This document shows, one piece after another, positions 10,359 to 23,894 of a stretch of DNA of 25,857 nt. Every line of letters begins with the position of its first letter. The stretch's first letter is position 1. The position numbers and the translations under genes are program-made. The stretch is from Thermodesulfobacteriota bacterium (GTDB lineage: Bacteria; Desulfobacterota; Binatia; DP-6): contig JBKPBB010000157.1 of the NCBI GenBank assembly GCA_046744245.1, positions 1 through 25,857 on the forward strand, read 5' to 3'. The notes below the pieces were generated by a model. The model saw only the letters and a list, made by a program, of their open reading frames with translations. It did not search any database and had not been told where the DNA came from.

Positions 10359-10868
10359 TCAGCCTTCCTTCGTCGGAATCGAGCCGATGTACTCCATCTT
10401 GCCGAGGTCGACGCCGTTGTGGCGGAGGATCGCGTACGCCGTCGTCGCGTGAAAGAAGAAGTTCGGTAGCGCGATGTGCACCAGGTAGTCGTCGCCGCGG
10501 AGCCACTTCCCGCCAAGCCAAGGCGGAGACACCTTCCGCTCCTCGGCTCCGGCCAAGTCCTTCGCCTGGACGCTCTCGAGGAAGGCGAGGCACTTCTGAA
10601 CGCGTTGCCGGAGCTCGGCGAAGGTCTGCTCGGTGTCCGGGTGGGACGGCGGCTGCCTGCCGGCGAGGTACGCGGCCGCGTACTTCGCCTGGTCGCAGGC
10701 GGACTGCACCTGGCGGACGAAGGGGTACTGATCCGGCGCCAGGCGGGCCTGGGCGAGCACCTCGACGTCGAAGGATTTGGCCTTCGCGTATGCGGTGGCC
10801 TTGTCCATCCAATGCTCGAGGTTCTGCAGGGTCTTGGCGAACAGCCGGATGACATCGTCGTGCTTCAT
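10359..10868 (-). CDS. DUF1993 family (DinB-like helical bundle) protein
   Basis: ARLAPDQYPFVRQVQSACD, DTEQTFAELRQR and LPNFFFHATTAYAILRHNGVDLGK motifs. RBS GAGGAGG lies upstream of ATG 10868. Confidence 0.93.
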   Translation of the reverse strand: MKHDDVIRLFAKTLQNLEHWMDKATAYAKAKSFDVEVLAQARLAPDQYPFVRQVQSACDQAKYAAAYLAGRQPPSHPDTEQTFAELRQRVQKCLAFLESVQAKDLAGAEERKVSPPWLGGKWLRGDDYLVHIALPNFFFHATTAYAILRHNGVDLGKMEYIGSIPTKEG

Positions 10869-10973
10869 GCGATCCTCCTCTCGTGAGCGCCGGACGATAG
10901 TCCAGCGTGTACCCTCAAGCCACCCCCCGCGGCGCTGGCGAGCAGTTGAGGGACCGACCCACAGGCCGCCCCC

Positions 10974-11106
10974 TGCTGGTCGTCTACGACGGGCGCGAGC
11001 GACGCAGGCCTGGTCCGAGGATTTCGGTTGGGTCAACTGCAGCGGCGGCACGAGCGCCGACAGCTTTGGGGTCCGTGCGGTGCGGCTCGTGATGGCGGAG
11101 CGGTGA
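10974..11106 (+). pseudogene. Decayed C-terminal remnant of a DUF1566 (Lcl C-terminal-like) gene
   Basis: CWSSTTGASDA (10974-11006), then after a +1 shift AWSEDFGWVN...FGVRAVRLVMAER* (11008-11106). This matches the DUF1566 tail pattern YWSSTT...AW.V.F..G...VRAVR. Confidence 0.55.
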
Positions 11107-11129
11107 TCGGAGCCTGCCGGACGGGATTT

Positions 11130-11951
11130 TCACTGCAGGCCCGCGAGCCAGCCGCGCAGCGCGTGCCGGAACGCCTCGGACTCCTCGACGAAGGGATAGT
11201 GCCCGCTCTGCTCGAAGACGACCAGCTCCGAGCCCCGGATTCCCTGCCGCATCCGCTCCGCCTGCGACGGCGGGCAGAAGAAGTCGTGCCGGCCGGTCAG
11301 GATGAGCGTGGGCACGTCGATCTCGCCTAGGCGCGACACCACGTCGCAGTCCGCCATGAGCTCCCGGCTGCGCGCGTTGGCCGACGGGCTCCAGCGGGTC
11401 TCCCTGAAGAGCCGCTTCGCGCGCGCGGGATCGAAGGCGCGAAGGCCGAGGCTGGCGGCCACCAGCTCCTGGTTCCGCGCGAAGGTGGCGTCGTCCGCCG
11501 GGACGTCGAGGAAGGCGCTGAGAACCTCTGCGCCGGGGGCCCGTCGCTGCAGCTCCACGATGATCTCGTCGGTGTAGTCCCACGCCGCGGTGGTGCCGAC
11601 CAGCAGGAGATGGCTCAGGTGGCGGGAATGGCGCAGCGCGTACTGGAGCGCGAGGCAGCCGCCGTACGAGTGGCCCAGCACCGCGACCTTCTCGCACCCG
11701 AGATGAGCTCGCAGGGCATCTGCATCGTCGGCGAGCTGCGCGAGCGTGAGCGTCTCGATGGGCGGCCGGCCGGAGCGGCCGTTGCCGCGATGATCGTAAT
11801 AGACGAGGCGGAGCGCGTCGCCGAGCGGGTCGAGCCCGTCGCGGAACTGGGTGTGATCGACGCCGAGCCCGCCGTGCATGACGAGGCACGGCACGCCCGT
11901 CCCCACCTCGAGGTAGAAGAGCTCGGTGCCGTTGACGGGCGCGAGGGGCAT
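11130..11951 (-). CDS. Alpha/beta hydrolase (proline iminopeptidase-like)
   Basis: HGGLG oxyanion motif, YDHRGNGRS, nucleophile elbow GHSYGG, GRHDFFCP and SGHYP. The ATG overlaps the upstream stop (TGATG). Confidence 0.93.
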   Translation of the reverse strand: MPLAPVNGTELFYLEVGTGVPCLVMHGGLGVDHTQFRDGLDPLGDALRLVYYDHRGNGRSGRPPIETLTLAQLADDADALRAHLGCEKVAVLGHSYGGCLALQYALRHSRHLSHLLLVGTTAAWDYTDEIIVELQRRAPGAEVLSAFLDVPADDATFARNQELVAASLGLRAFDPARAKRLFRETRWSPSANARSRELMADCDVVSRLGEIDVPTLILTGRHDFFCPPSQAERMRQGIRGSELVVFEQSGHYPFVEESEAFRHALRGWLAGLQ

Positions 11952-17229: not shown

Positions 17230-17359
17230 CGAGGGGAGCTTGCTTATTCCACTACTCTGCTTCGCGGCCGTGACGGAGCGTCCGCGCGCTTGCGCTCGAA
17301 TAGCTCGCCTGATCCCGCCCCTTGGCGTGGAGGCTCCCGGTCGTCCATGATGACCGTCC

Positions 17360-18772
17360 ATGGCGGCCATCGACGGGTTGCTCGCCCTCATCGAGATTCA
17401 GAAGGCGAGCGGGCTCGTATTGGTGACCGGCGAAGTGCCAGCCCTGCTCGTGGGCGGCGCCACGCGTCCTCTCAGCATGCCGGCGCTGGCGCCGGCGCTG
17501 TTCGACGCGCTCATCGACGAGGTCCTCGACCCCGAGCAACGGGAGCGTCTGCGCGCGCAAGCCACCGTCGAGCTCGTCTACAGGTCCAACCGAAACAACA
17601 AGTCCTTCAACGTCACGGCGCAATCGACCGGCGAGCGGACGGTCCTCCGGTTCGTCGTGGGCGGCGCGCTCGCGGCGCGTGCGACGTCGGCGGCGGTGCG
17701 CCGACCCGCCAGCCTCGAATCGCTCGTCGTCGAGGCGCTCGACCGCGGCGCCTCGGACATCGTCCTCTCGGAAGGGCGCTCGCCACGGCTGCGCTTCGCC
17801 GGCCAGCTCGAAAGCGAGGACGGACCCGTCACGACGGCGCAGGACATCGAGACCTTCCTCGCCGCCCACATGACGTCCGAAACCCGCGCGCGGTTCGATG
17901 AGACCGGCAGCGCCGATCTTGCCTGTACACTCGACACCGCGGAGGAGCCGCGTCGGTTCCGCACCAATCTCTTTCGGCACCAGGCCGGCCTTTGCCTGAC
18001 GCTCCGCCCCATTCGCGACCGCATTCCCACGTTGGAGGAGCTGGGGCTTCCGCGCTCGCTCGCTGCGCTGGGTGCCCTGCTCGACGGAATGGTGCTCCTC
18101 AACGGACCGGCCGGCTCGGGCAAGTCGACGACGCTCGCCGCGCTCGTCGGCGAGATCAACCGAACGCGGGCCGTCCACGTGATCACCCTCGAAGATCCCA
18201 TCGAGTACCTGCACACGCCGCAGCGCAGCCTCATCCACCAGCGGGAGGTGGGCGCCCACGTGGAGAGCTTCAGCTCGGGTCTGCGTGCAGCTCTGCGCGA
18301 AAGTCCCGACGTCATTCTGGTGGGCGAGATGCGCGACCTCGAGACCATCTCGCTCGCGCTGACCGCCGCCGAGACCGGCCACCTCGTCCTCTCGACTCTC
18401 CACAGCGGCGCCGGCGCCATGGCCATCGACCGCATCATCGACGTCTTCCCGGACGCGCAACAGGCGCAGGTGCGCACTCAGCTCGCCTCGGTCCTGCGCG
18501 CCGTCGTGACGCAGCGGCTTCTACCGTCGACGGAGCCCGGCGGACGCGTGCCCGCGGTCGAGGTTCTCCGCGCGAGCTACGCGATCGCCGCCCAGATCCG
18601 CGAGAGCAAGACGCATCAGCTCGCCACACAAATTCAACTCGGCCAGGACGAGGGCATGATCCCCCTCGAACGATCCCTCGTCGATCTCGTGCGCGCGGGC
18701 CGCATCACCCGCGAGACGGCCCTCGCCGCCGCGCGGAGCCCCGAAGAGCTGCAGCGCTGGCTGAAGGACTGA
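17360..18772 (+). CDS. pilT: PilT/PilU-family type IV pilus retraction-type ATPase with an extra N-terminal domain
   Basis: GASDIVLSEG, Walker A GPAGSGKSTTLAA, ITLEDPIEY, QREVG, AALRESPDVILVGEMRDLETI, His box TGHLVLSTLH and an AIRNLIRE-like AIAAQIRE. It is a paralogue, not necessarily the main motor. Confidence 0.92.
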   Translation: MAAIDGLLALIEIQKASGLVLVTGEVPALLVGGATRPLSMPALAPALFDALIDEVLDPEQRERLRAQATVELVYRSNRNNKSFNVTAQSTGERTVLRFVVGGALAARATSAAVRRPASLESLVVEALDRGASDIVLSEGRSPRLRFAGQLESEDGPVTTAQDIETFLAAHMTSETRARFDETGSADLACTLDTAEEPRRFRTNLFRHQAGLCLTLRPIRDRIPTLEELGLPRSLAALGALLDGMVLLNGPAGSGKSTTLAALVGEINRTRAVHVITLEDPIEYLHTPQRSLIHQREVGAHVESFSSGLRAALRESPDVILVGEMRDLETISLALTAAETGHLVLSTLHSGAGAMAIDRIIDVFPDAQQAQVRTQLASVLRAVVTQRLLPSTEPGGRVPAVEVLRASYAIAAQIRESKTHQLATQIQLGQDEGMIPLERSLVDLVRAGRITRETALAAARSPEELQRWLKD

Positions 18773-18801
18773 CGCTCGGGCTCCAGAACCCGATTGACCG
18801 C

Positions 18802-18843: not shown

Positions 18844-18934
18844 CGGGTCCTGACCGAGCGCCGCCCGCGCGCGGGCGCTGCCCGCGCCGTCCCCCGCGCG
18901 CGAGCTCGCCGCGACCGGAAGCCGTTGACGGTTC

Positions 18935-19867
18935 TCAGAGTAGTCCGGCCCGCTCGAGGACCCCGTCGAGGCGAGAGGCGAGCTCGGGAGCCGCCGGCAT
19001 CATCGGGAGTCGGTGCGCGTTCTCGGCGAGGAGCCCCATCCGCTTCATCATGTACTTGATCGGGATCGGGTTCGTATCGAGGAAGACGGCGCGGTTGAGC
19101 TCGAAGAGATCGAAGTGGAGGCGTCGTGCCTCGGCGAGCTTCCCCTCCGCGACCGCGCGGTAGAGCGCGGCGACCTTGCGCGGGGCGAGGTTGCCGACCG
19201 CGTTGATCAGGCCGGCGGCGCCGAGGGCGAGCATCGGGAAGGAGAGCTCCTCGAGGCCGGCCATCACGCGCAGCTCGCTGCCGAAGCGCGCGAGCGCCTC
19301 GGTGACGAGGCCCAGGTCGTCGGCGGCGTGCTTGAAGCCGACGAAGGTGGGAGCGCGCTCGGCGAGCGCGCTCAAGGTGTCGAGCGTGACCGCTACGGCC
19401 GCCCGGCCGGGGATGTGGTAGAGGAGGAACGGCAGCGGGCTGCGCCGTGCAAGATCGGCGAAGTATTCGACCAGACCGCGCTGCGGCGGGCGGACGTAAT
19501 AGGGAGTGACGACCAGGAGCGCGTCGGCGCCGACCGCAGCGGCGTGCTCGGTGAGCTCGACCGTCTCGGCATGCGACTGGCTGCCGGTGGCCACCACGAC
19601 CGGCAGACGTCGCGCGGCCGCCTGGAGCGCGACCTCGCACAGGCGCTTTCGCTCCGCCACGCTGAGCAGGCTCGGCTCGGCGGTCGTGCCGTTCACGACG
19701 ATGCCGTGGCTGCCCTCCCTCACCTGGAAGTCGACGAGCGAGGCGTAGGCGTCGCAGTCGACCCGGTCGCCACGGAACGGCGTGACGAGCGGCGGATAGG
19801 AGCCGCGCAGGAACTGAGCGGGGAGTGCGATCAGGTTGCCCTCCGTCTCTCGAGCGAGCGGCCTCAC
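18935..19867 (-). CDS. DapA/N-acetylneuraminate-lyase family aldolase (HpaI-type/NahE/PhdJ-like catabolic aldolase rather than biosynthetic DHDPS)
   Basis: RGSYPPLVTPF, GTTAE, ADALLVVTPYYVRP, LYHIPGR, Schiff-base Lys in GFKHA, and TNPIPIK. The start is either GTG 19867 (GTGA overlap with the upstream stop) or CTG 19834 after GGAGG. Confidence 0.9.
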   Translation of the reverse strand: MRPLARETEGNLIALPAQFLRGSYPPLVTPFRGDRVDCDAYASLVDFQVREGSHGIVVNGTTAEPSLLSVAERKRLCEVALQAAARRLPVVVATGSQSHAETVELTEHAAAVGADALLVVTPYYVRPPQRGLVEYFADLARRSPLPFLLYHIPGRAAVAVTLDTLSALAERAPTFVGFKHAADDLGLVTEALARFGSELRVMAGLEELSFPMLALGAAGLINAVGNLAPRKVAALYRAVAEGKLAEARRLHFDLFELNRAVFLDTNPIPIKYMMKRMGLLAENAHRLPMMPAAPELASRLDGVLERAGLL

Positions 19868-20955
19868 TCGACCTGCGAGCGATTGGTGGCGAACCCGGCC
19901 TCGGCGCCGAGGACGCGCGGGGGCCGCGTCAGGTCCTCCTGCCAGAGCAACGATTCCATCGCGATGTTGAGCGGCTGGTCCTGGACGGTGAGCTCGTAGA
20001 CGGCGTCGTCGTCGCTCGAGGCGTGGTGGTGCACCGCCCAGCCCGGGGCGCTGAGCATCAGGTCGCCCGCCTTCCACTCGTAGCGCCTGCGGTCGACGAC
20101 GCTCCAGCCGCGGCCGCGGAAGTAGTAGTTGATCGCCGCCGACACGTGGCGGTGCGGCCGGTCGACGATTCCCGGCGGGCGGACGGTGATGGTAGCGAAG
20201 AAGCTCGGGGTCGTACCGTTGGTGCGGCCGGTCGCCGGGTTGTAGAGGAGATAGAGCCGCCGGCCTACGTAGTCGGCCCCGAGCGCGTCGAGCTGGTCGA
20301 GGTGCGCCTTGACGCTCCGCCAGGGCCAGTGCAGCGCCCGCGAATCGACGGGCGGCGGGTTGATGAGCGTCTCGTAGGGCATGAGCATCGCGCCCTCGCC
20401 GGCGAGCGGGACGGCGCCGGAGGCGCCCCGTCGCGGCGCATCGCCCGGCGATGGCTCGGCTCCGGCGGCGATCGCGTCCTCGCGAGGGCTCTCCTCGACC
20501 AGGTGGACGTTCATCTTCTCGAGCAGGGGCGCGTTCGAGTAGGTGAGCCGCACCTGCAGCTCGTCGGCGTCGTTCACCTGCCAGGCGGCGTGCCAGGAGG
20601 GATGATTCCAGACGTCGTACTGCGAGAAGGCGATGCGCTTTCGGCCGACGACCGCCGAGCCGCCGCCGCGGATGCAGAACTCGACCTCGGTCGAGTTCCG
20701 GCGGACGGGCTCGGTGCGCTCGCCGGGCCTGAGGACCGAGAGCGTCACGCGGATTCCCGGCAAGAGGCCGAGGCCGGGCTCCGTCGAGCGTGGATGAACG
20801 AAGAGCGATTCGCGCCGGCCGTTGGCGGGGCGCGGCAGTGACGCGAGGCGCTCGGCCTCGGCGTCGATCTCCTCCTGCGTGAAGATCACCGGCTCCCAGA
20901 GCTCGGGCTCCGGGGCGGTCTGGCCGGACACGTCCTGGAAGAAGGGCTTCGCCAT
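19864..20955 (-). CDS. Bicupin, gentisate/salicylate/1-hydroxy-2-naphthoate 1,2-dioxygenase-like ring-cleavage enzyme
   Basis: Two cupin repeats. The C-terminal one has RPHRHVSAAINY...GDLMLSAPGWAVHHH. The ATG at 20955 overlaps the upstream stop (TGATG). Confidence 0.82.
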   Translation of the reverse strand: MAKPFFQDVSGQTAPEPELWEPVIFTQEEIDAEAERLASLPRPANGRRESLFVHPRSTEPGLGLLPGIRVTLSVLRPGERTEPVRRNSTEVEFCIRGGGSAVVGRKRIAFSQYDVWNHPSWHAAWQVNDADELQVRLTYSNAPLLEKMNVHLVEESPREDAIAAGAEPSPGDAPRRGASGAVPLAGEGAMLMPYETLINPPPVDSRALHWPWRSVKAHLDQLDALGADYVGRRLYLLYNPATGRTNGTTPSFFATITVRPPGIVDRPHRHVSAAINYYFRGRGWSVVDRRRYEWKAGDLMLSAPGWAVHHHASSDDDAVYELTVQDQPLNIAMESLLWQEDLTRPPRVLGAEAGFATNRSQVE

Positions 20956-21956
20956 CACGATCCTCCGTGCAGCCGGGGCAGAGCCTGCGCCGGGTGCGGA
21001 AGGCGGCGGCCGATGCCTCGTGCGGCCGCGCGGCCGAGCACCTCGACCGCGACCGCGAGGTCGGCGAGACCGATGCCCATCGCCTTGAAGAGGGTGACGT
21101 CCGCCTCGGGCGGCCGGCTGCGCCGCGCGGCCACGATACGGGACAGCGGCGTGATCTCGGTCGCGTCGCCGAGCTCGGCGGCGAGCCGGCGGGCCGCCGA
21201 AGGGCTGTCGGCGACGACCAGCGAGCAGCGTCGCACGAGGTCGCTCGAGAGCTCCCGGCGCTCGGGCGTGATCGCGCCGATCGCGTTCACGTGGGCGCCC
21301 GCGGCGACCATGGCGGCGTCGAGCAGCGGCTCGCGGGCCCGGGTCGCGGTCGTGATGATCGGGCACCCCTCGACCGCCTCAAAGACCGAGCGCGCCTCGG
21401 TGACCCGAAAGGCGAAGCCGGAGGCGGCCAGGCGTGCGACGAACGCGGCTCGACGCTCCGCCGTCGGGCTGAACACGCGCACGCGGGAGAGGGGACGCAC
21501 CGCGGCGACGGCGGCCACCTGCGGCAGGGCCTGCTTGCCGGTGCCGATGAGCGCGAGCTCCGCGGCGTCGCTCCGCGCCAGCCAGCGCGTGGCCACGCCC
21601 GAGACCGCGCCGGTGCGGAGCTGCCCGAGGACGAACGCCTCGATCACCGCCTTGAGACGCCCCGAGCCGCTGTCCCAGAGGATGAGGAGCGGGGTCGCGC
21701 CGCCGGCGGTGTGGGCCCAGGTCTTGGTGCCGACGAATCCCGCGCTCGCCGCCTCGCCGCCGAGCGCGTGCAGGCTGTGTCCCTAGCCCCACACGACGTG
21801 GGTCTTCTCCATGGTCTGCGCGCTCCCCGAGGCCTCGAGCGCGAGCCAGCGCTCGACGGCCGCGATCGCCCCGGGAAGGCTCACCAGGCTCGCGACCTCC
21901 GCCTCGGTGAGCCAGAGCGGGTCCTCCGCCGTCGAGGCGGCCGTGCGCGACGCCAT
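20955..21956 (-). pseudogene. Ornithine cyclodeaminase/mu-crystallin family protein with an in-frame TAG at codon 58
   Basis: ORFs 21783..22349 (from ATG 21956) and 20955..21647 share a frame: ...KTHVVWG*GHSLHALGG...GTKTWAHT...LRTGAVSG...IGTGKQA...ITTAT...HVNAIG...TLFKAMGIGLADLA. Confidence 0.85.
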
Positions 21957-21958
21957 CG

Positions 21959-22438
21959 TCAAACCGGGTAGATCAGCGAAATGGGGATGATCGGCGCGTC
22001 GTAGACCGCGACCTTGCGCCGGAACTTGAGCGCTCCGTCGACGGACACGACGAGGTCCACGTAGCGGCCGGCCAGGTGGACGCGGGTCGGCTCGTCGCCG
22101 AGCGACTCGGCGACCAGGAAGCTGGCACGGACCTCCAGCCCCGAGTCGCTCTCGCGCTGGGGCCGGATGCCCGAGACGAAGCGGCGCAGCGCCCGCGGCG
22201 CGAAGGTCTGCGTCCTGCGGATGGTGTGGATGCGATCGGCGAGCATCCTGCGGCTGTCGCACCGCATCGTCGCGAGCGGCAGGCCGCGCTCGAAGTTCTC
22301 GCGCGAGACGACCCGGTACTCGCTCTCCTCCACGAACAGATCGAGCCACGAATCGAAGTCGCCCTCGTCCAGGTAGGCGACGTAGTCGTCGTAGAAATCG
22401 CGCAGGCGCGCGCGCTCGACCGCCCCTCCCGGGCTCAT
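21959..22438 (-). CDS. Aromatic ring-hydroxylating oxygenase beta subunit (NagH-like)
   Basis: YDDYVAYLD...WLDLF...YRVVSRENFERGLPLA...DRI...GRYVD...YDAPIIPISLIYPV. The ATG at 22438 overlaps the alpha-subunit stop (ATGA). Confidence 0.93.
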   Translation of the reverse strand: MSPGGAVERARLRDFYDDYVAYLDEGDFDSWLDLFVEESEYRVVSRENFERGLPLATMRCDSRRMLADRIHTIRRTQTFAPRALRRFVSGIRPQRESDSGLEVRASFLVAESLGDEPTRVHLAGRYVDLVVSVDGALKFRRKVAVYDAPIIPISLIYPV

Positions 22439-23682
22439 AACTCCATGACCCGGCGGTAGTGCGCGTAGAAGGCGCGAATCGCGGCCTCGGTCACGATGTG
22501 CTCGCTGTCGGAGAGGTCGCGTCCACCCATCTCGACGAGGGCCGACGCCCCCTCGCCCGCCCGGCAGCCGAGCTGGGCGAGGCGCAGGACCTCGCTGTCG
22601 TCGATGGAGACCAGCCCCGCGGGCCCCATCAGGTTCGCCTGCCGCAGGCGCCGGGTGGTCATGTCCTCGTCGTCGTCGGCGTACCCGAAGAAGGTCCAGT
22701 GAAGCTCGAACGCGCCGGGCCCGCGCGTGACCAGCTGCCGGGTGGCGAGCGTGTTCGACTGCTGCTGGACGATCAGGTTCGGCCAGATCGTCTGCATCAC
22801 CACGGTGGCGCTCCCCGGGAACTCCCGCACGGGATCGAGGAGGCGAGGGTCCGCGAGCGTCAGGTCGCTGCGGAAGGACTTCATCTCGGCCGTGGCCTCG
22901 CTCGCCTTCTGCTCCCCCTTGCTCGAGACGAGCACGGCGTGCTGGCCGCTCGCGTCCATCTGCACGGCCGAGGGCATGTCGGCGCGGAAGAGGCCGAAGC
23001 TCACCAGGAACACGTGCAGCAGGCTCGCGTGGTACGGGTCCTTGATGTTCTCGAACATGAGCTTCCAGTTGGCGGGAACGATCTGCCGCTGGTAGCCGAG
23101 AACGCGAAGCTGCCGTCCGTCGAAGACCCGGTCGAACCATCCGAGGTTGGTCTGGCCGAGATAGTCCTCGAGCGCCGGCATGCAACCCTCGAACGAGGCG
23201 AAGACGACGCCGTGGCGCTCGGCGACGGCGAGCCGCTCGAGGCCGTGCTCGGCGAGCGAGAAGTCGGCCGACATTCCTCCGGCGCCCTTGACCCCGTGCC
23301 GGAAGGGGACGCCGCGGAGGTTGCCATCGAGATCATAGGTCCACTGGTGGTACGGGCACATGAAGCTCTTGGTGCTTCCGTACGCCTCCGTGCAGAACTG
23401 GACGCCGCGGTGCGCGCAGCGGTTGACGAGCACGTTCGCCCGGCCGTCGGCCGCGCGGACGACGACCACCGGGACCTCGCCGATCGTCGAGCGCTTGAAG
23501 TCACCCGGGCGCGGGATCTCGGCGGCGAGCGCGACGTAGCTCCAGCTCGCGCCCCGGAAGATCCGCTGCTGCTCGCGCCGGTAGACCTCGGCGTCGGTGT
23601 ACACCCAGTAGGGGACCCGGCTCACGCCCTCCGCCGGCCACGTGCGCTTCGCGGGGCGATCGAGGTCGTCGAGGGGTTCCAT
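22435..23682 (-). CDS. Rieske ring-hydroxylating oxygenase alpha subunit, salicylate 5-hydroxylase (NagG)/anthranilate dioxygenase (AndAc)-like clade
   Basis: Rieske ligands NRCAHRG and CPYHQW; mononuclear Fe region NWKLMFENIKDPYHASLLH and GPAGLVSIDD; clade-typical WPxEGxSRVP, GVPFRxG and RLRQANL. Confidence 0.95.
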   Translation of the reverse strand: MEPLDDLDRPAKRTWPAEGVSRVPYWVYTDAEVYRREQQRIFRGASWSYVALAAEIPRPGDFKRSTIGEVPVVVVRAADGRANVLVNRCAHRGVQFCTEAYGSTKSFMCPYHQWTYDLDGNLRGVPFRHGVKGAGGMSADFSLAEHGLERLAVAERHGVVFASFEGCMPALEDYLGQTNLGWFDRVFDGRQLRVLGYQRQIVPANWKLMFENIKDPYHASLLHVFLVSFGLFRADMPSAVQMDASGQHAVLVSSKGEQKASEATAEMKSFRSDLTLADPRLLDPVREFPGSATVVMQTIWPNLIVQQQSNTLATRQLVTRGPGAFELHWTFFGYADDDEDMTTRRLRQANLMGPAGLVSIDDSEVLRLAQLGCRAGEGASALVEMGGRDLSDSEHIVTEAAIRAFYAHYRRVMEL

Positions 23683-23710
23683 TTTTCGCTGAGAGACCCT
23701 CTACCCTCGT

Positions 23711-23731
23711 GTGTCGACACCCACGATCATA
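23711..23731 (-). promoter_or_regulatory. Possible -10 element and adjacent palindrome upstream of the aromatic operon
   Basis: TATGAT on the minus strand (23731-23726), with the palindrome GTGTCGACAC (23711-23720) just downstream. No clear -35. Confidence 0.3.
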
Positions 23732-23894
23732 CCGTCCTCCGGCACCACAGCCGCGCATGGTGCGGACTCAGCGCTTCTTCCGGCCCCCGAGAGCTTACCG
23801 TGCAGGCCGGATGGGCGAGGATAGTCTGCAGGGCGGGCTGACGACAAGGTCGGATCCGATCGCCGTCGCATGAGCCGCGTTCCCTTCGATGGCG

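Follow-up and report, generated by a model that had tools for sequence, protein, structure and literature searches.

The lower parts of the textbook gentisate and salicylate pathways consist of an isomerase and a hydrolase. The locus described here raises the question of what is degraded, and by what route, when these two enzymes are exchanged for a protein of the OCD/mu-crystallin family and a DapA-like aldolase. The operon that combines them lies on the minus strand of contig JBKPBB010000157.1 (25,857 nucleotides) from a Thermodesulfobacteriota bacterium (GenBank assembly GCA_046744245.1). The whole contig was analysed and is referred to below as the window; it is the longest contig (C157) of a metagenome-assembled genome (MAG) of 2.6 Mb, which comprises 500 contigs and is 79% complete. 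In order of transcription, the five genes encode the alpha and beta subunits of a Rieske oxygenase, the OCD-like protein, a bicupin dioxygenase-like protein and the DapA-like protein. On balance we favour the view that they form a widespread catabolic module for an aromatic carboxylic acid, which would have been acquired horizontally by this genome and has perhaps been freshly damaged in it.

Conservation of the module in bacterial genomes

The arrangement of the operon is not a product of chance, because it is conserved in dozens of unrelated genomes. The bicupin has more than 2,700 homologues, the best 120 of which are 64-76% identical to it, and the source labels of these proteins read only 'cupin domain-containing protein', 'AraC family ligand binding domain-containing protein' or 'gentisate 1,2-dioxygenase'. 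A scan with one genome per species confirmed at least 468 bicupin loci, carried by Alpha-, Beta- and Gammaproteobacteria, Acidimicrobiales, Mycobacterium, Binatia, Thermodesulfobacteriota, Vulcanimicrobiaceae and others. The module is found in at least several hundred species of soil and marine origin and of many phyla, and since its carriers include cultured organisms (Paraburkholderia, Ralstonia solanacearum, Mycobacterium and Algihabitans) it is directly testable.

Gene neighbourhoods were counted in the 60 best loci that had 3.5 kb or more on each side of the bicupin gene. An OCD-like gene was present in 37 of these and abutted the bicupin gene in 34, so that the conservation on which a preliminary description of this DNA, made from the sequence alone, had made its proposal depend was indeed observed. 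The DapA-like gene was present in 34 loci (adjacent in 33), the alpha and beta genes were nearby in 14, and all five genes occurred together in 8. Eleven loci paired the bicupin and DapA-like genes with no OCD-like gene adjacent; among five genomes with such a pair, four encoded an OCD orthologue elsewhere (48-51% identity). The exact gene order of the window recurs in an Acidimicrobiales MAG, whose alpha subunit is 75% identical to ours, and Algihabitans albus (ac2, NZ_CP159482.1, around 1.98-2.00 Mb) has a typical complete cluster (beta-alpha, MarR, TRAP-TAXI, CMD-OCD-bicupin-DapA-SDR).

The Rieske oxygenase

The alpha subunit has the Pfam domains Rieske and Ring_hydroxyl_A, with the motif CAHRG...CPYHQW visible in its sequence, and the beta subunit has Ring_hydroxyl_B. 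Their best curated NCBIfam models are AndAc (440 bits against a cut-off of 750) and AndAd (120 bits against 230), both scores lying well under the cut-offs. The closest relative of alpha in the PDB is the salicylate 5-hydroxylase NagG (7c8z; 470 bits, ~55% identity), followed by the terephthalate dioxygenase TphA2. In this subfamily the aryl carboxylate is anchored by an arginine, R323 in NagG and R309 in TphA2, and S243 of TphA2 binds the second carboxylate of terephthalate (PMC9060491). We found that R315 of the alpha subunit aligns with R342 of the 7c8z chain, which is native NagG R323, so the anchoring arginine is conserved, and that L251 occupies the position of TphA2 S243. Taken together, the conserved arginine and the leucine at the second-carboxylate site suggest that the substrate is likely to be an aromatic mono-carboxylate. 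Compared with enzymes of the salicylate 5-hydroxylase type, the protein has the Rieske motif, the catalytic domain, the beta partner and the anchoring arginine; a ferredoxin and a reductase in the operon, and a curated score above the cut-off, are lacking.

The bicupin

The PDB sequence matches of the bicupin are gentisate and salicylate 1,2-dioxygenases (GDO and SDO), all distant (E ~1e-17), and its Pfam matches, Cupin_2 and AraC_binding, are confined to the C-terminal half. The AlphaFold (AF2) model (pLDDT 73, pTM 0.78) has the bicupin fold of the GDO/SDO class: its top Foldseek neighbours are 2d40, 3bu7 and 2phd, with TM scores of 0.65-0.69 over ~330 columns at 16-20% identity. Four histidines, H268, H270, H309 and H311, are invariant among the homologues and form the motif HRH...H.H of the C-terminal cupin. 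At the ligand positions of the N-terminal cupin stand the invariant residues R85 and N87, so the three-histidine site that GDO carries in this half is missing. The bicupin family of the module would accordingly have its active site in the barrel opposite to that of GDO. Curated scores were far from assigning a function (70.6 bits for the GDO model TIGR02272, cut-off 442; 73 bits for the MabB model, cut-off 650, with weak but co-linear similarity), and the look-alikes in the ESM Atlas were 'cupin domain-containing protein' clusters only.

The DapA-like aldolase and the probable lower end of the pathway

The DapA-like protein matches PF00701 (DHDPS) with 238 bits, and its closest structure is the true DHDPS 2ehh (222 bits). 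The motifs aligned to that structure are GTT(A)E, PYY (as PYYVRP), Y-x-I-P-x-R (as YHIPGR, with the equivalent of Arg138) and the Schiff-base lysine (in GFKHA). We take the roles of this lysine, of the Tyr133-type tyrosine and of the Arg138-type arginine to be those of E. coli DHDPS; in DHDPS Arg138 binds the carboxylate of a C4 semialdehyde. The best NCBIfam match is TIGR02313, 'HpaI-NOT-DapA', a family of 2,4-dihydroxyhept-2-ene-1,7-dioate (HKHD) aldolases, at 286 bits, under the cut-off of 397. The score against TIGR00674, 250 bits, is over that cut-off (206), and the housekeeping DapA proteins of relatives reach 344-356 bits. Algihabitans has both a canonical DapA (348 bits) and a separate module copy (264 bits) that adjoins the bicupin. 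No second dapA was found in our 79%-complete MAG; judged by the scores, the gene in the window is probably a paralogue of the housekeeping dapA. In Paraburkholderia the orthologue carries the annotation HKHD aldolase.

The megaplasmid of R. solanacearum is informative about what happens after ring cleavage. There the order is CMD-like, OCD, bicupin (62% identity), hpaH, hpaI and a GabD-type dehydrogenase, and no DapA-like gene follows the bicupin. The products of hpaH and hpaI are 2-oxohept-3-enedioate hydratase and 4-hydroxy-2-oxoheptanedioate aldolase, and the GabD-type succinic semialdehyde dehydrogenase (SSADH) matches TIGR01780 with 714 bits, over the cut-off of 646. Because of these three genes, the Paraburkholderia annotation and the retained Arg138 equivalent, the lower end of the pathway most likely converts a linear C7 dicarboxylate to pyruvate and succinic semialdehyde.

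We also noted that in R. solanacearum (L090; CP049788.1, 1428787-1433278) five genes lie directly upstream of the CMD-OCD-bicupin genes. They encode a two-component phenol hydroxylase of the HsaA/C2 type together with its flavin reductase, one NTF2-like and one BKACE-family protein, and a short protein annotated as 'homogentisate dioxygenase'; possibly they constitute another upper pathway that supplies this module.

Recurrent partners and variant loci

Partners of the module were counted by clustering the open reading frames that neighbour the bicupin in 80 loci. The most frequent were a CMD-family protein of 193 amino acids encoded just upstream of OCD (30 loci) and a PhtD-like protein (20 loci); the latter has a weak, sub-threshold Pfam match to Phosphonate-bd and, in our reading, resembles 4,5-dihydroxyphthalate decarboxylase. 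A MarR regulator and an SDR were each found in 10 loci, a TAXI-TRAP transporter in about 10, and an AndAb-like Rieske ferredoxin and an HTH-citrate-synthase-like regulator in 9 each. An SSADH-like aldehyde dehydrogenase is encoded downstream of the DapA-like gene in one locus (L077).

Several loci depart from this pattern. Bicupins of 65-67% identity stand without OCD or DapA-like genes in eight loci (L029, L031, L032, L034, L041, L047, L053 and L060), which belong to Candidatus Binatia and one Thermodesulfobacteriota MAG. Their neighbours, as we read the sequences, would be an amidase, a CocE/NonD hydrolase, alpha/beta hydrolases, an amidohydrolase_2-like protein, a CN-hydrolase and an LLM oxidoreductase, an arrangement that points to another way of feeding the pathway, for example through hydrolysis of amides or esters. 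In seven loci of Alphaproteobacteria, including Defluviicoccus MAGs (L027, L046, L054, L056, L057, L064 and L065), the bicupin and DapA-like pair is found right behind the ribosomal-protein-secY-adk cluster, and OCD is located elsewhere, beside a Bug/TTT binding protein. A monocupin of 185-189 amino acids is encoded beside TAXI genes in two Mycobacterium spp. (L014 and L025, at about 10756-11325) and in L008; this protein weakly resembles 3-hydroxyanthranilate 3,4-dioxygenase and carries a rubredoxin-like Cys4 motif at its C-terminus. Its neighbours in Mycobacterium are a dienelactone hydrolase, an FAD/NAD(P) oxidoreductase, a CoA-transferase and a divergent GntR/FCD regulator. Finally, a Rhodovibrionaceae MAG (L050) contains two copies of the module within 17 kb; the bicupin and alpha subunit of the second are ~50% identical to those of the window, and this copy appears to be a divergent paralogous module.

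Layout and setting of the operon

The features of the operon are listed in Table 1. All four junctions were read from the sequence: alpha and beta overlap by 4 nt (ATGA), beta and OCD are separated by 2 nt (TGA-cg-ATG), OCD and bicupin overlap by 1 nt (TGATG), and bicupin and DapA by 4 nt (GTGA). These are exactly the junctions given in the preliminary description, and its family assignments are borne out by the Pfam profiles and the bicupin matches. The GC content of the window is 72%, equal to that of the remainder of the MAG. A glycogen-debranching-type gene lies upstream of the operon and a convergent PilT-like gene downstream. The inverted repeat between the PilT-like and DapA-like genes has 13-nt arms (92% complementary) and a 17-nt loop, lacks a T tract, and possibly acts as a bidirectional terminator hairpin. 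No sigma-70 consensus was found upstream of alpha, and scans for promoters and intrinsic terminators are uninformative at 72% GC.

Table 1. Features of the operon and its borders in the window (coordinates of the five genes include the stop codon)
Feature	Position	Strand	Assignment or remark
Rieske oxygenase alpha subunit, 415 aa	22435-23682	minus	NagG/AndAc/TphA2 aryl-carboxylate subfamily
Rieske oxygenase beta subunit, 159 aa	21959-22438	minus	Pfam Ring_hydroxyl_B and SnoaL_4; ATGA overlap with alpha
OCD/mu-crystallin family gene, 332 codons	20955-21956	minus	PF02423; in-frame stop at codon 58
In-frame TAG in the OCD-like gene	21783-21785	minus	Seen on translation
Bicupin dioxygenase-like protein, 363 aa	19864-20955	minus	GDO/SDO-like; histidine set in the C-terminal cupin only
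DapA/DHDPS-family class I aldolase, probable paralogue, 310 aa	18935-19867	minus	PF00701; probable 4-hydroxy-2-oxo-C7-dicarboxylate (HKHD-type) aldolase
Intergenic region upstream of alpha	23683-23894	minus	Presumed promoter/5'UTR; GAGGG Shine-Dalgarno-like motif, A5 run before the alpha ATG
GC-rich inverted repeat	18863-18905		Possible bidirectional terminator hairpin between the convergent PilT-like and DapA-like genes

The OCD-like gene, its premature stop and the origin of the operon

The part of the OCD-like protein that follows the stop codon matches PF02423 (OCD_Mu_crystall) with 160 bits (cut-off 24). Against the NCBIfam equivalogs the protein remains under every cut-off, the best result being 160 bits for a cut-off of 417, so that none of the functional subfamilies (OCD, pyrroline-/piperideine-2-carboxylate (Pyr2C/Pip2C) reductase, alanine dehydrogenase (AlaDH), BhcD, EutC or SbnB) is assigned by score. 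The best PDB matches are the Pyr2C reductase 6t3e, archaeal AlaDH, CRYM, lysine/ornithine cyclodeaminase and BhcD. Compared with 37 orthologues, all family-conserved residues are kept apart from the stop, including the GTK and LRTGA motifs, which we take to bind the alpha-carboxylate as in known OCD/CRYM structures.

The in-frame TAG at codon 58, which the preliminary description did not report, was seen on translation. Nineteen soil-metagenome runs from 17 studies each contain 86% or more of the words sampled from the operon, and one of them (X1) yielded a 3063-bp soil contig (depth 11) that spans 19969-23031 and differs from the window at 14 positions (99.5% identity). This contig has C for A at plus-strand position 21785, which changes TAG to GAG (Glu), and its OCD allele is intact. 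It is the one independent contig that covers the stop site, as coverage in X18 and X19 does not include it. The codon-58 column is variable among the 37 orthologues (D/G/K/A/E/H/Q/R). Since the sibling allele reads GAG, the column is variable and includes Glu, and the other conserved positions are kept, we interpret the TAG either as a nonsense allele of very recent origin or as an error in the MAG consensus. A genuine nonsense codon would mean that the pathway may be impaired in this strain.

We noted some further irregularities around the coding sequences. The A5 run preceding the alpha ATG (23680-23690) is 4 nt longer than in the X1 and X18 sibling contigs (at 23682), and the spacing from GAGGG to ATG is therefore longer in the window. 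The OCD orthologues of two other MAGs are broken as well: that in L007 (4765-5764) falls into two adjacent tblastn segments that suggest a frameshift, and that in G351 (C2:1739481-1740317) carries an in-frame TGA; these interruptions may be assembly or sequencing errors or cases of recurrent inactivation.

With regard to origin, the bicupin was not found in any of 24 further genomes from the family of the host, among them G001 (same genus, 99% complete), nor in any of 200 sampled genomes of its phylum, and no close OCD orthologue was found in 18 family members. Because the bicupin is lacking in these relatives, horizontal acquisition of the operon is likely. The PilT-like protein encoded next to the operon shares 92% identity with one from a 'Gemmatimonadetes bacterium' MAG, which makes a soil Gemmatimonadota the probable host. 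The PilT-like gene (17285-18791) provides the only nucleotide similarity between the window and G001 (93%), which ends at the 3' end of the gene (18791). Both flanks of this gene differ from G001, so boundaries of an insertion are not definable; the region around it appears to be poorly syntenic even inside the genus.

These findings lead to the question whether the operon still works. It could be a decaying, non-functional remnant of a recent transfer, which would be compatible with any function of the intact module. Beside the stop codon and the stretched spacing ahead of alpha, four of the five other differences between the N-terminal part of the OCD-like protein and the sibling allele are non-synonymous, the window contains no ferredoxin, reductase, CMD-like, transporter or regulator genes, and the module was missing from the family and phylum members searched. 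Against decay, the remaining four genes are intact with their catalytic residues conserved, an error of assembly or consensus at one base is conceivable in a MAG of 500 contigs, the sibling allele is intact, and two Rieske-ferredoxin candidates are present on other contigs (C63 and C235). The 5' part of alpha is matched at 100% identity by two metatranscriptome contigs, which hints weakly at transcription, DNA carry-over being possible. We consider a dead remnant a possible, rather doubtful, explanation.

Proposed pathway and alternative substrates

Returning to a catabolic route for an aromatic carboxylic acid, we propose four steps. The NagGH-like Rieske enzyme would hydroxylate an aryl carboxylate to an o-hydroxy acid of the salicylate or gentisate type, with a ferredoxin and a reductase encoded elsewhere; we suggest this step because of the ~55% identity to NagG and the conserved carboxylate-binding arginine. 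The bicupin, with a three-histidine iron site in its C-terminal barrel, would then open the ring beside the carboxyl-bearing carbon. To obtain a linear C7 2-oxo-dicarboxylate from a benzoate, cleavage has to occur at this position, which is the GDO/SDO reaction and fits the bicupin fold; to judge from that fold, the product would be of the maleylpyruvate or 2-oxohepta-3,5-dienedioate type. For the third step, the weakest of the four, we can only infer that the NAD(P)-dependent OCD-like enzyme leads into the 2-oxohept-3-enedioate/4-hydroxy-2-oxoheptanedioate series. In its simplest form it would be a reduction (2-hydroxyhepta-2,4-dienedioate could, for instance, arise by a 1,6-hydride addition) and then an isomerisation, for which the CMD-like protein, present in most other genomes, could be responsible. 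The DapA-like class I (hydratase-)aldolase would finally split off pyruvate; the other product, a C4 acid semialdehyde, would most likely be succinic semialdehyde, given the gene replacement in Ralstonia and the conserved DHDPS residues.

After cleavage of the salicylate type, 2-oxohepta-3,5-dienedioate would require one reduction and one hydration to become 4-hydroxy-2-oxoheptanedioate, and after cleavage of the gentisate type maleylpyruvate would require two reductions. In its most specific form the proposal is of a 'reductive' salicylate/gentisate pathway, in which an OCD enzyme recruited outside C-N chemistry reduces the product of a new family of bicupins and, together with a CMD-like isomerase, delivers pyruvate and succinic semialdehyde via the lower homoprotocatechuate route; the classical end products are fumarate or maleate and pyruvate. 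We put this version forward tentatively, as a conjecture that is less likely to be right than the general assignment to aromatic acid catabolism.

The gene identities and junctions agree with the coupled catabolic operon of the preliminary description, with its logic of NagGH-like hydroxylase, GDO-like bicupin and DapA-type aldolase. It had also remarked that maleylpyruvate isomerase and FAH hydrolase genes are missing, and neither was found in the window; FAH-family genes occur elsewhere in the MAG, and since the family is near-universal they are uninformative about the standard gentisate route. The pathway remains a candidate for novelty, as had been suggested, no published match for the cluster having been found in the literature searched, where one of the queries was poorly discriminating.

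Several observations weigh against the route as we have drawn it. We know of no enzyme of the OCD/mu-crystallin family that acts beyond C-N bonds, and a nitrogen-free reduction or isomerisation would therefore be without precedent; the OCD-like enzyme is also the sole candidate reductase of the core, and the gentisate route needs two reductions. The carboxylate-binding arginine of GDO and SDO (HRH..SALRF, eight residues past the first histidine) aligns, in a low-identity alignment, with the invariant Asn276 of the bicupin, so the substrate of this enzyme may be neither gentisate nor salicylate. The frame of the OCD-like gene is broken at codon 58, and within the window the operon includes no ferredoxin or reductase gene (nor a CMD-like, regulator or transporter gene). 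In Ralstonia, hpaH, hpaI and gabD could belong to a neighbouring pathway. The hydroxylases upstream of the module vary by genome (Rieske NagG-like, HsaA/C2-type flavin enzyme or VanA-like), which leaves more than one hub intermediate possible.

Alternatively, the module might degrade an aromatic acid with an amino substituent or a ring nitrogen (for example an aminosalicylate, a hydroxyanthranilate or a hydroxypyridine-carboxylate). In that case NAD-dependent imine/amine chemistry of the OCD-like enzyme on the ring-fission product would remove or relocate the nitrogen before aldol cleavage. The characterised OCD relatives are all imine reductases, amino-acid dehydrogenases or cyclodeaminases, and the presumed alpha-carboxylate-binding motifs are kept. 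The DapA-like protein is very near true DHDPS, whose product bears an amino group, and the subfamily of NagG includes anthranilate and hydroxypicolinate oxygenases (PMC9060491), but NagG itself is the closest relative of alpha. The bicupin is weakly, co-linearly similar to the 5-aminosalicylate dioxygenase MabB (73 bits), and a 3-hydroxyanthranilate-dioxygenase-like monocupin occurs in four loci, two of them from Mycobacterium; both scores are, however, far under the cut-offs, and the mab cluster is composed differently (flavin MabA, deaminase, hydrolase). Moreover, the core module carries no amidase, deformylase, RidA or other deaminase gene, 11 of the 60 loci consist of bicupin and DapA-like genes with no adjacent OCD, and the Ralstonia variant ends in the nitrogen-free hpaH-hpaI-gabD. 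Given the lack of any other nitrogen enzyme, the proximity to NagG and the nitrogen-free Ralstonia route, we did not retain the amino- or N-substituted substrate of the preliminary description, with removal of nitrogen by the OCD-like enzyme, and consider it unlikely. A more particular nitrogenous route would start from a pyridine-dicarboxylate, for example dipicolinate, and run like diaminopimelate synthesis in reverse: the Rieske enzyme would form 3-hydroxydipicolinate, the bicupin would open it, and the OCD-like and DapA-like enzymes would act on piperideine- or imino-dicarboxylates. In A. faecalis the monooxygenase DipD hydroxylates dipicolinate first, to 3-hydroxydipicolinate (PMC11472048). 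This product is an aza analogue of salicylate. Enzymes of the DapA-like and of the P2C-reductase-like kind act on the C7 2,6-dicarboxylate skeleton, the TAXI-TRAP or TTT transporters and the PhtD-like decarboxylase suggest dicarboxylates, and a GntR/FCD regulator flanks the Mycobacterium locus. Except in the Mycobacterium loci, however, the regulators are MarR or HTH-citrate-synthase-like and not of the GntR type of DipR, L251 stands at the second-carboxylate site of TphA2, and succinic semialdehyde does not fit as an end product. DipR of the Alcaligenes faecalis JQ135 dip cluster is a GntR/FadR regulator with GWATAC operators; its published 24-mer operator was not found in 317 genomes of one carrier's family, which is a weak test. 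We regard the dipicolinate route as very improbable.

On balance we prefer a route for an aromatic carboxylic acid, probably a mono-carboxylate. The module would replace the isomerase and hydrolase of the textbook routes by two families that are not known to be linked to aromatic catabolism. To identify its substrate would allow a function to be assigned to thousands of genes whose present labels are 'cupin domain protein', 'OCD family protein' or 'DapA', and could reveal new chemistry in the mu-crystallin family as well as an extra route of aromatic-carbon turnover in soil.

Comparison with known systems

The operon is closest in its upper part to the nag pathway of Ralstonia sp. U2 (NagAaGHAb, NagI, NagL and NagK). 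The alpha subunit is ~55% identical to NagG with the same anchoring arginine and an adjacent beta gene, and in both cases the hydroxylase genes are accompanied by a bicupin of the GDO/SDO fold. It differs in that the operon has no ferredoxin or reductase, that the OCD-like and DapA-like enzymes take the places of NagL and NagK, and that the bicupin is only ~17-20% identical to GDOs, with its histidine triad in the other barrel and an asparagine for the carboxylate-binding arginine. The mab cluster of Comamonas sp. QT12, which converts 3-aminobenzoate to 5-aminosalicylate for cleavage by MabB, likewise employs a bicupin on a gentisate analogue, one with weak, co-linear similarity to ours, but it contains a flavin hydroxylase, a deaminase and a hydrolase and lacks OCD-like and DapA-like genes.

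For the step that follows ring cleavage, the nearest parallel is PhdI/PhdJ of Nocardioides sp. KP7, where a 1-hydroxy-2-naphthoate dioxygenase is reportedly followed by a DapA-family hydratase-aldolase that releases pyruvate. In that pathway a GDO-type bicupin acts directly before a DapA-family enzyme, and the same adjacency is seen in the module loci. In the module, by contrast, an OCD-like enzyme stands between these steps, the ring compound attacked is probably monocyclic, and the aldehyde released is probably a C4 acid semialdehyde and not 2-carboxybenzaldehyde. The end of the route recalls the lower homoprotocatechuate pathway (HpaH, HpaI and GabD, and the TIGR02313 aldolases of Thermus and Oceanobacillus), since TIGR02313 is the best match of the DapA-like protein and hpaH, hpaI and gabD stand in for its gene after the bicupin in Ralstonia; the score of 286 bits is nevertheless below the cut-off of 397, and the upper part is not HpaD/E/F/G. 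By curated scores and defining features the operon thus appears to be a member of none of these systems, and to combine an upper part of nag-type hydroxylase and GDO, a PhdI/PhdJ-like step of bicupin and aldolase, and an Hpa-type end.

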